64,000 nucleotides of DNA from Candidatus Latescibacterota bacterium (GCA_965203805.1 OZ241917.1:2272001-2336000); one strand, 5' to 3'. Shown: positions 48,177 to 48,452, numbered from the stretch's first letter. Program-made: numbers and translations. Notes: generated by a model from the sequence alone, not told the origin.

Positions 48177-48212
48177 CGCCTCACGGGGACACTCTGGTTC
48201 CCAGTTGAGGCG
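48177..48212 (-). promoter_or_regulatory. Leader RNA hairpin, copy A
   Basis: Minus strand CGCCTCA-ACTGGGAAC-CAGAGT-GTCCCCG-TGAGGCG; 20-nt core shared with 48416-48452. Confidence 0.65.
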
Positions 48213-48238
48213 ATCGACTTGCTTCAGGCAAGGAACCT

Positions 48239-48385
48239 TTACTTCTTTGCCGAAGCGTCGTCAGATGGGTTATTATCTGATCCGTCTGCCCAATTCTCGG
48301 GCCTTTCATCGTCGCCGCGCGACTGCCAATAAGCATCGTTGTTCGGGTTCAACTGATTGGCGCGATTGTCATTGTCGCGATCCAT
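48239..48385 (-). CDS. Asn/Asp-rich micro-protein (48 aa), not in the ORF track
   Basis: AAAGGAGGTG RBS; MDRDNDNRANQLNPNNDAYWQSRGDDERPENWADGSDNNPSDDASAKK. Confidence 0.78.
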   Translation of the reverse strand: MDRDNDNRANQLNPNNDAYWQSRGDDERPENWADGSDNNPSDDASAKK

Positions 48386-48415
48386 GATACCACCTCCTTT
48401 CTCTTGGAATCGGGT

Positions 48416-48452
48416 CGGCTCATGGGGGACACTCAGGTTCCCAGATGTTCCG
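48416..48452 (-). promoter_or_regulatory. Leader RNA hairpin, copy B
   Basis: Minus strand CGGAACAT-CTGGGAAC-CTGAGT-GTCCCCC-ATGAGCCG; core 240 bp from copy A. Confidence 0.65.

Follow-up and report, generated by a model that had tools for sequence, protein, structure and literature searches.

A covarying stem-loop RNA in the leaders of micro-ORF units at the P596 locus of Latescibacterota and Poribacteria

On the minus strand of a stretch of Candidatus Latescibacterota DNA 64,000 nucleotides in length (the window), two micro-ORFs are each preceded by the same short repeat. Is this repeat a functional RNA element and, if so, how might it serve the small genes behind it? A first-pass annotation described a 20-nt core that recurs at a spacing of 240 nt, each time before an identical Shine–Dalgarno (SD) sequence, and this arrangement was confirmed (Table 1). 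The core has the consensus CTGGGAACC(A/T)GAGTGTCCCC. Zero matches with up to 3 mismatches were obtained in 100 dinucleotide shuffles of the window, and a search at the same tolerance found no third copy in the organism's own genome (5,865,457 bp), which holds just these two.

Table 1. Features of the micro-ORF locus, in window coordinates.
Feature	Coordinates	Strand	Description
Histidine kinase	53751-52051	-	
Response regulator (bEBP)	52047-50641	-	Sigma-54-dependent, NtrC/PspF-like
P596	48616..50406	-	596 aa, all-helical, no family match; the hairpin's constant partner
Sigma-54-type promoter	48490..48505	-	TGGCATAGTTCTTGCA, 63 nt before core B; predicted start near 48480
Leader hairpin, copy B	48416..48452	-	Outer arms CGG..CAT / ATG..CCG; row L024:1750-1833 of alignment A5
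Core, copy B	48425-48444	-	CTGGGAACCTGAGTGTCCCC
SD of micro-ORF 1	48391..48401	-	GAAAGGAGGTG, begins 23 nt past core B
Micro-ORF 1	48239..48385	-	48 aa, acidic, DNRANQLNPNNDAYWQSRG.DERP..W motif; ATG at 48385, 5-6 nt beyond the SD
Leader hairpin, copy A	48175..48214	-	Outer arms ATCGCCTCA / TGAGGCGGT; row L024:1501-1593 of alignment A5
Core, copy A	48185-48204	-	CTGGGAACCAGAGTGTCCCC
SD of micro-ORF 2	48147..48157	-	GAAAGGAGGTG, begins 27 nt past core A
Micro-ORF 2	47991..48140	-	49 aa from ATG 48140 (5-6 nt beyond the SD), Gly/Arg-rich, ..KTGN.SGGGR.NAPP.. tail
Leader of the beta-CASP gene	47849-47909 and 47817-47833	-	Second conserved structured RNA, four helices
Beta-CASP nuclease	46195..47787	-	Metallo-beta-lactamase nuclease; frequent, not obligatory downstream gene
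SNF2 helicase with preceding DUF6883 gene	41796-45756	-	Helicase of 1203 aa, DUF4926 N-terminus; best PADLOC matches BrxHI/DrmD

The pairing claimed for the flanks of both cores was also borne out: CGCCTCA faces TGAGGCG in copy A, and CGG..CAT faces ATG..CCG in copy B. The arms of copy A (48214-48206 and 48183-48175) form nine pairs, one of them G·U, around an inner stem of GGGA (48202-48199) and TCCC (48189-48186). Correspondingly, the arms of copy B (48452-48445 and 48423-48416) enclose GGGA (48442-48439) and TCCC (48429-48426). Folded as isolated 51-mers, copy A reached -21.3 kcal/mol (z -3.73), a value equalled by 0 of 200 shuffles, and copy B reached -13.0 kcal/mol (z -0.33), equalled by 71 of 200. 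As copy B is indistinguishable from its shuffles and by itself unconvincing, evidence for a structure had to come from relatives.

Thirty-five copies from 29 genomes were assembled in alignment A5, which is based on sequence only and fitted to no structure; it comprises 26 leader-bearing loci of the neighbouring gene P596, the window's own genome and two further genomes. In the hairpin, an outer helix of 9 bp leads through a small internal loop to an inner helix of 4 bp (GGGA/UCCC), which is capped by an apical loop of 9 nt. This loop, closed by an A-U pair, fits better than the C(A/U)GAGU hexaloop proposed earlier; the extra C-G pair of the hexaloop is not kept in relatives. Standard pairs fill 90.5% of the 431 paired cells in A5, compared with 39.8-55.3% when the 3′ partners are slid by 1-3 columns. 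Both sides change at seven of the 13 pairs (shuffle mean 3.6; seven reached in 4 of 500 shuffles) and the covariation score is 0.229, against 0.186 in shuffles (0 of 500 as high), controls that overstate significance because the copies are kin. An independent RNAalifold run over the whole leader returned a sole consensus, made up of the inner helix plus the innermost four pairs of the outer one; this is the same hairpin, and nothing else in the leader was predicted.

Individual substitutions illustrate how the stem changes. Three genomes of one genus carry CGCCTCA/TGAGGCG, CGTCTCA/TGAGGCG and CGTCTCA/TGAGACG, a series from C-G through U-G to U-A. In a genome of another genus (G071), a non-coding leader behind a sigma-54 promoter has the arms TTTCCTCA/TGAGGAAA, and two Poribacteria copies have CTTCR/TGAAG. 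The inner helix varies likewise, to GGAA/UUCC in one genus and to GGGG/CCCC in part of another. Two genomes have lost a pair through a synonymous change from CGC to CGG, with no compensation on the other side, and by manual count two B-type leaders from the window's own genus hold just 3/7 and 4/7 outer pairs in register. The apical part (UUGGGAAs.AuAGUGUCCC) and the internal loop are conserved beyond the outer helix, even where the 5′ half is non-coding.

In a strand test on A5, G·U cells numbered 43 and A·C cells 6. This excess points to a folded RNA of the micro-ORF strand, not to a palindrome in duplex DNA. Together, the seven pairs that change on both sides, the G·U bias and the RNAalifold consensus support the idea, put forward in the first-pass annotation, of a conserved cis-acting element with covarying stems that behaves as RNA of the micro-ORF strand. 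As judged from the aligned sequences, what recurs in front of the micro-ORFs is a conserved stem-loop of their leader RNA, and it is highly probable that this stem-loop is functional.

The distribution of the element was mapped with a covariance model built, again from sequence only, from five leaders. Strong matches (E<1e-9) occurred in 11 of the 53 genomes of the order, at one or two per genome and always at the P596 locus; these 11 genomes are exactly the 11 of the order that encode P596. P596 itself is patchy (19 of 132 genomes of the class) and has micro-ORF units beside it in every case. When its relatives were scanned in one genome per species, 42 loci were obtained, all but three of them in Latescibacterota or Poribacteria MAGs; the exceptions are labelled Vicinamibacterales bacterium, bacterium and uncultured bacterium. 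At E<1e-6, the leader was present at 26 of these 42 loci of public genomes. All 35 hairpin copies adjoin a P596 gene, and the element is kept across P596 proteins only 53-57% identical to that of the window.

Searches for the core alone gave a similar picture. Exact matches in metagenome contigs numbered five, of which one was genuine by its arms, SD and upstream P596, and there were zero exact matches in viral contigs. With mismatches allowed, 41 genomes including the window's own (G000) gave 19 matches, two of them G000's own copies, compared with seven in a reversed control; by context, three of the 17 others were genuine leaders and the rest chance. The restriction to the P596 locus marks the element as locus-specific rather than as a dispersed repeat. 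A genome-wide REP, an objection foreseen at the outset, is not what was found, and the REP/BIME and MITE classes were rejected: there are two copies in 5.87 Mb at up to 3 mismatches, and the one or two strong model matches per genome lie at the P596 locus. Of the 42 P596 loci, 16 are without the hairpin. Some micro-ORFs at these 16 have short, unstructured leaders, and the hairpin is therefore dispensable in some lineages.

Seven of the hairpin-less Poribacteria loci (L101, L104, L111, L092, L093, L096 and L103) share a conserved TTTTTTACTATCCTTTTCATTGGAGCGGACTCTATATA-like stretch. In three of the seven, another small hairpin, GACGCGAA..TTCGCGT, precedes the SD; the leaders of the rest are short and apparently unstructured.

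The constant partner P596 has no match in Pfam, NCBIfam or PADLOC. Its AlphaFold2 model, computed from seven sequences, is all-helical with a pLDDT of 51.7, too poor for a fold search, and the ESM Atlas gave only weak HEAT-repeat leads (0.89-0.90). Domain searches found no recognisable RNA-binding domain in the protein.

The hairpin and the P596 gene are connected more closely still in 11 copies, from genus g6 of the sister family and from one genus of a third family, in which the hairpin overlaps the end of P596 (ten overlaps computed, one read by eye). Here, ..DRL(N/D)WEx is encoded by the 5′ arm plus the leading half of the core, and the gene stops at a TAG codon within the apical loop. In 34 of 34 copies, leucine in the 5′ arm is specified by CTC (pair 17-49). 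Where a P596 gene lacks the hairpin, its product terminates in ..DRFK or ..DRYERKR instead, so that the ..DRLNWEx end appears to be kept for the RNA. The RNA thus seems to constrain the last codons of P596.

Free-standing copies, copy A among them, still have approximately 10 nt of P596-like coding sequence before the 5′ arm. On this sequence evidence, free-standing copies arose through duplication of the gene end plus leader. The same remnant of coding sequence in copy A and several other copies would fit a neutral relic, in which leftovers of a duplicated P596 3′ end and leader carry a palindrome that is inherited and not selected, and decayed hairpin copies beside decayed micro-ORFs would fit it too. 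However, compensatory changes at seven of 13 pairs, non-coding contexts included, the bias of G·U over A·C, and retention of the hairpin alongside such divergent P596 proteins make a relic very unlikely.

A further arrangement was observed at five loci of family f4 (L082, L085, L086, L089 and L080). The P596 end there retains the 5′ half of the hairpin (..CATTGGGAAGTATAA); an insert of 90-330 nt follows, with a conserved promoter-like stretch ..CTTTTTCAT..TATAGT.., and then the full hairpin. As the insert lies between a half and a complete hairpin, the core half of approximately 14 nt is directly repeated on either side of it.

The AAGGAGGT block of the SD is nearly invariant across the 35 copies. 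The distance from core to SD is 36-46 nt (41 nt in 21) in the 34 of 35 copies with a located SD, and 39-46 nt in the 28 of those with an ATG start. The hairpin ends approximately 17-20 nt upstream of a near-perfect SD, which lies outside it, and it is retained regardless of whether a gene end, a promoter, another micro-ORF or a kinase gene stands upstream. The hairpin probably controls expression of the micro-ORFs.

The micro-ORFs vary as cargo: relatives carry ORFs rich in Gly and Arg, acidic ORFs of the DNRANQLNPNNDAYW type, a single chimera of the two and decayed ORFs that lack an ATG, and the micro-ORF 2 type stands behind the hairpin in most of them. Homologues of micro-ORF 1 comprise 275 small proteins at E≤0.001 among 288 candidates, none with a name or a Pfam domain. 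This large, unnamed family of 40-80 aa has one or two copies of DNRANQ(L/M)NPNNDAYWQSRG.DERP..WE. The two ORFs of the window were initially described as unrelated; they have indeed no mutual similarity, but they belong to one interchangeable set and are fused in a single ORF of a same-genus genome. This ORF, behind a B-type leader (L023, genome G001), has 60 aa, with an N-terminus and C-terminal tail of the micro-ORF 2 type and a central motif of the micro-ORF 1 type, which suggests recombination between two cargo types.

At most related loci, for example L078:4970-5020 and L070:5175-5225, a long GC-rich hairpin past the micro-ORF stop codon is followed by ACAUUUCGUUU-like sequence and probably serves as a terminator or 3′ stabiliser. 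In L078, it folds with a z of -6.0; in the window, the degenerate version is unconvincing (z -1.31). The unit is closed by this long hairpin in relatives, and the micro-ORF is thereby bracketed by structures.

How the units are transcribed is suggested by a sigma-54-type promoter upstream of copy B. The sigma-54 consensus is TGGCAC-N5-TTGC, with GG and GC 10 nt apart and transcription starting approximately 12 nt after GC. TGGCATAGTTCTTGCA is the sole canonical box in the 64-kb window, where 0.09 are expected, and rpoN is encoded in the same genome. Among the 35 copies, six including copy B have a GG-N10-GC box matching at least 9 of 11 consensus positions 47-63 nt before the core, and by eye other leaders have weaker (8/11) or decayed (TTGT, TTAT) boxes at the same place. 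Boxes of this type, 47-63 nt before the core, recur in distant genomes (L023, L080, L100, L109 and L099). As the boxes recur before hairpins, the micro-ORF units look like members of a sigma-54 regulon; the adjoining pair of histidine kinase and bEBP is seen in the window's own genus only. From the promoter, its distance to core B and the presence of rpoN, a transcript can be predicted that would run from the sigma-54 start through hairpin B, micro-ORF 1, hairpin A and micro-ORF 2, with read-through into the structured leader of the beta-CASP gene. The predicted start lies an estimated 12-28 nt before the hairpin stem.

Could the repeat instead act as DNA, as a duplex operator or promoter, or as an attC-like single-strand recombination site at cassette boundaries? 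The core resembles a sigma-54 box, as GG-N10-GT, and three relatives have GG-N10-GC or GG-N9-GC; nevertheless, a real sigma-54 box lies upstream of the hairpin in the same leaders, there is no sigma-70-like site on the hairpin strand, and the strand-asymmetric G·U excess speaks against a duplex site. A folded single DNA strand would likewise give covariation and G·T pairs, cargo ORFs are swapped, and hairpin copies flank an inserted pair of viperin and kinase genes in one Poribacteria locus (L100). Set against this are the approximately 49 kb to the nearest tyrosine recombinase and the one or two copies per genome. A DNA-level site is accordingly the least probable of the readings weighed here. 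The looser term 'cassette boundary' holds as description, given the recurring 5′ edge, the swapped cargo and the flanked viperin-kinase pair, and fails as mechanism, with no recombination machinery adjoining. The tyrosine recombinase gene itself (G000 2270927-2271451) lies approximately 550 bp left of the window start and could mark the edge of a genomic island that holds the locus.

The wider neighbourhood reads, in minus-strand order, histidine kinase, bEBP, P596, two hairpin/micro-ORF units, beta-CASP nuclease, DUF6883 protein and SNF2 helicase. DUF4926, at the N-terminus of the helicase, and DUF6883 are small domains that are often paired. Among other possibilities, the first-pass annotation offered the hairpins as processing sites for the beta-CASP nuclease. 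On this reading, the enzyme would cut at the hairpins and either mature or destroy the micro-ORF messages. A beta-CASP gene does lie within 3 kb downstream of P596 at 25 of the 42 related loci, and the nuclease has sub-threshold similarity to RNA-cleaving aCPSF1 and type VII Cas14-like proteins. However, five hairpin-bearing g6 genomes have no beta-CASP gene at the locus; downstream there are a prokaryotic viperin gene (NF038283, 306.7 bits, cut-off 180) and a dTMP-kinase-like gene, and the sole beta-CASP homologue of these genomes, at 54-57% identity and with a longer open frame, lies far away on the chromosome. The proposal is unsupported as it was stated, and cleavage by this particular nuclease is unlikely. 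In L100, the beta-CASP gene and the viperin-kinase pair are both present, with hairpin copies before and after the pair. P596, the micro-ORF units and either viperin and kinase or the beta-CASP nuclease form a candidate accessory or defence-linked module.

The beta-CASP gene has a conserved structured leader of its own, with the helices P1 AUGCGU/ACGCAU, P2 GCAC/GUGC, P3 GAGGCU-CAAU-AGCCUC and, in relatives, P4 GAUCC/GGAUC. After the helices, and directly before the SD, comes a terminator-like hairpin (GGACGG..CGUCC with UUUAAU), in a riboswitch-like layout. Among 17 sequences, 83.9% of cells are paired, compared with 33-45% when slid, and changes on both sides are present at eight of the 24 pairs. 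The z of the window's own copy is -3.08, and the leader has no Rfam match.

Regarding mechanism, it is tentatively proposed that the micro-ORF hairpin acts in message processing and stability. The hairpin would be recognised through its structure and conserved apical sequence, so that the micro-ORF is treated as a message of its own. The preferred route is an endonucleolytic cut beside the hairpin; this would leave a stem-loop at the resulting 5′ terminus which, with the strong SD, would lend stability to the short mRNA. Expression of the micro-ORF could then far exceed that of the upstream gene or of read-through genes. As a 5′ stabiliser needs the very 5′ end and the hairpin lies some 12-28 nt in, the putative cleavage step is required. 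Against a plain stabiliser, the conserved apical sequence suits a specific binding partner at least equally well.

Such a partner is central to a second reading, a translational operator, in which a sequence-specific RNA-binding protein, maybe encoded by the module, would repress or activate initiation at the downstream SD with no cleavage. Conservation is higher in the apical part and internal loop than in the outer helix, even with a non-coding 5′ half, and the distance to the SD is nearly fixed, although common descent alone may explain this spacing. P596, the sole constant partner, co-occurs strictly with the hairpin in the order searched, but it has no recognisable RNA-binding domain, its structural model is poor, and it persists at the 16 of 42 loci without the hairpin. 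Furthermore, CsrA, the usual binder of GGA hairpins, is not encoded. An operator is thus possible but doubtful. Given the conserved apical sequence and the position of the hairpin away from the predicted primary 5′ end, it is nearly as likely as processing and stabilisation.

A bolder extension, which is improbable as it stands, would make the hairpin the RNA operator of an undescribed sigma-54-driven switch in an accessory module of P596, micro-protein and variable effector. The effector would be either the viperin-kinase pair or the beta-CASP nuclease with the SNF2 helicase. A module-encoded factor would read the conserved loop, leading to a burst of micro-protein upon a stress or infection signal, and, by overlapping the P596 stop codon, the hairpin would tie this release to P596 being translated.

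Several known classes of element were compared with the hairpin and rejected. In Rfam 15, the interval 45300-50700 of the window gave at E≤1 only two chance-level matches to microRNA models (E 0.088 and 0.39), one in micro-ORF 2 on the plus strand and one inside the beta-CASP gene, neither at the hairpins; seven related loci gave zero matches at E≤0.1. In literature listings and abstracts, nothing was found on the motif, on the micro-ORF peptide motifs or on RNA motifs of these phyla.

An intrinsic terminator is not indicated: a scan of 47700-48700 found no terminator-like site at either hairpin, and there is no U-tract, the 3′ arm being followed by GUGAAUAC in copy A and ACCCGAUU in copy B. 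The core is not itself taken as a sigma-54 promoter, since TGGGAA-N4-AGTGT gives GG-N10-GT in both copies, the canonical box lies 63 nt upstream of core B, and compensatory stem changes are not expected of a promoter. Sequestration of the SD was rejected because the structure ends at A5 column 57 and the SD starts from approximately column 79, with no conserved SD pairing predicted. Similarly, an anti-SD switch between the 5′ arm sequence ATCGCCTC and GAGGTGAT at the SD is not compatible with copy B and several relatives, which have no CCUC, and the SD flanks do not covary. UUGGGAA could pair with a downstream UUCCCAA-like box in some genomes; copy A offers no such pairing, and RNAalifold does not predict it. 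A CsrA/RsmA leader is disfavoured by a search for PF02599, which was not found in the 99.8%-complete genome (controls were detected), and by the core GGA, which lies in the stem and not in the loop. An integron attC site was set aside on the distance of the nearest PF00589 match (approximately 49 kb) and on the units' own SD and, often, sigma-54 box.

By these comparisons, the element is a leader RNA motif of narrow distribution, supported by covariation and absent from Rfam 15. Its class is familiar, that of cis-acting leader or intercistronic stem-loops. What is unusual is the combination of an overlap with the stop codon of a conserved unknown gene, recurrent sigma-54 boxes, swappable micro-ORF cargo and a defence-like neighbourhood. 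The motif would add to the RNA repertoire of two poorly known uncultured lineages, and it is tied to a module without annotated function that adjoins either antiviral genes (prokaryotic viperin and kinase) or a beta-CASP nuclease with a BrxH/DrmD-like helicase. It also clearly exemplifies a protein gene whose final codons and stop codon are apparently imposed by an RNA structure. The hairpin, the sigma-54 boxes, the bracketed micro-ORFs and the second structured RNA provide handles on the regulation of the micro-proteins and on the role of the module.

Among known systems, the motifs already in Rfam, those from Poribacteria metagenomes included, are like the hairpin in being small structured elements from the same taxa, and differ in that none matches at the hairpins. 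Integron attC sites share the imperfect palindrome, the conservation of structure over sequence and the position at the boundary of small swappable ORF units. Unlike them, the hairpin has no adjoining integrase, is present in one or two copies per genome, conserves its apical sequence, and stands 5′ of an ORF that brings along an SD and often a sigma-54 promoter of its own.

Protein-binding leader hairpins include the phage MS2 coat-protein operator, lambda boxB/N, ribosomal-protein operators and CsrA sites. The present element resembles them as a short stem-loop with a conserved loop and bulge, at a set distance from the initiation region and before each cistron. It differs in having no overlap with the SD or start codon and in a partner protein that is hypothetical, CsrA being absent from the genome.

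Stem-loops, intercistronic or 5′, that bound and stabilise the message behind them once an endonuclease has cut are known from E. coli papBA, Rhodobacter puf, B. subtilis cggR-gapA, the ompA 5′ hairpin and the cry3A STAB-SD. As in these systems, a stable hairpin marks the 5′ border of a short cistron that has a strong SD and lies within a longer transcript; there is no U-tract, the SD is free and, in relatives, a 3′ hairpin closes the unit. In contrast to them, the hairpin lies away from the predicted primary 5′ end, next to a cleavage site that is only hypothetical; its apical sequence is conserved across phylum-level distance, and its 5′ arm often doubles as the last coding stretch of the gene upstream, whose stop codon then falls in the loop.
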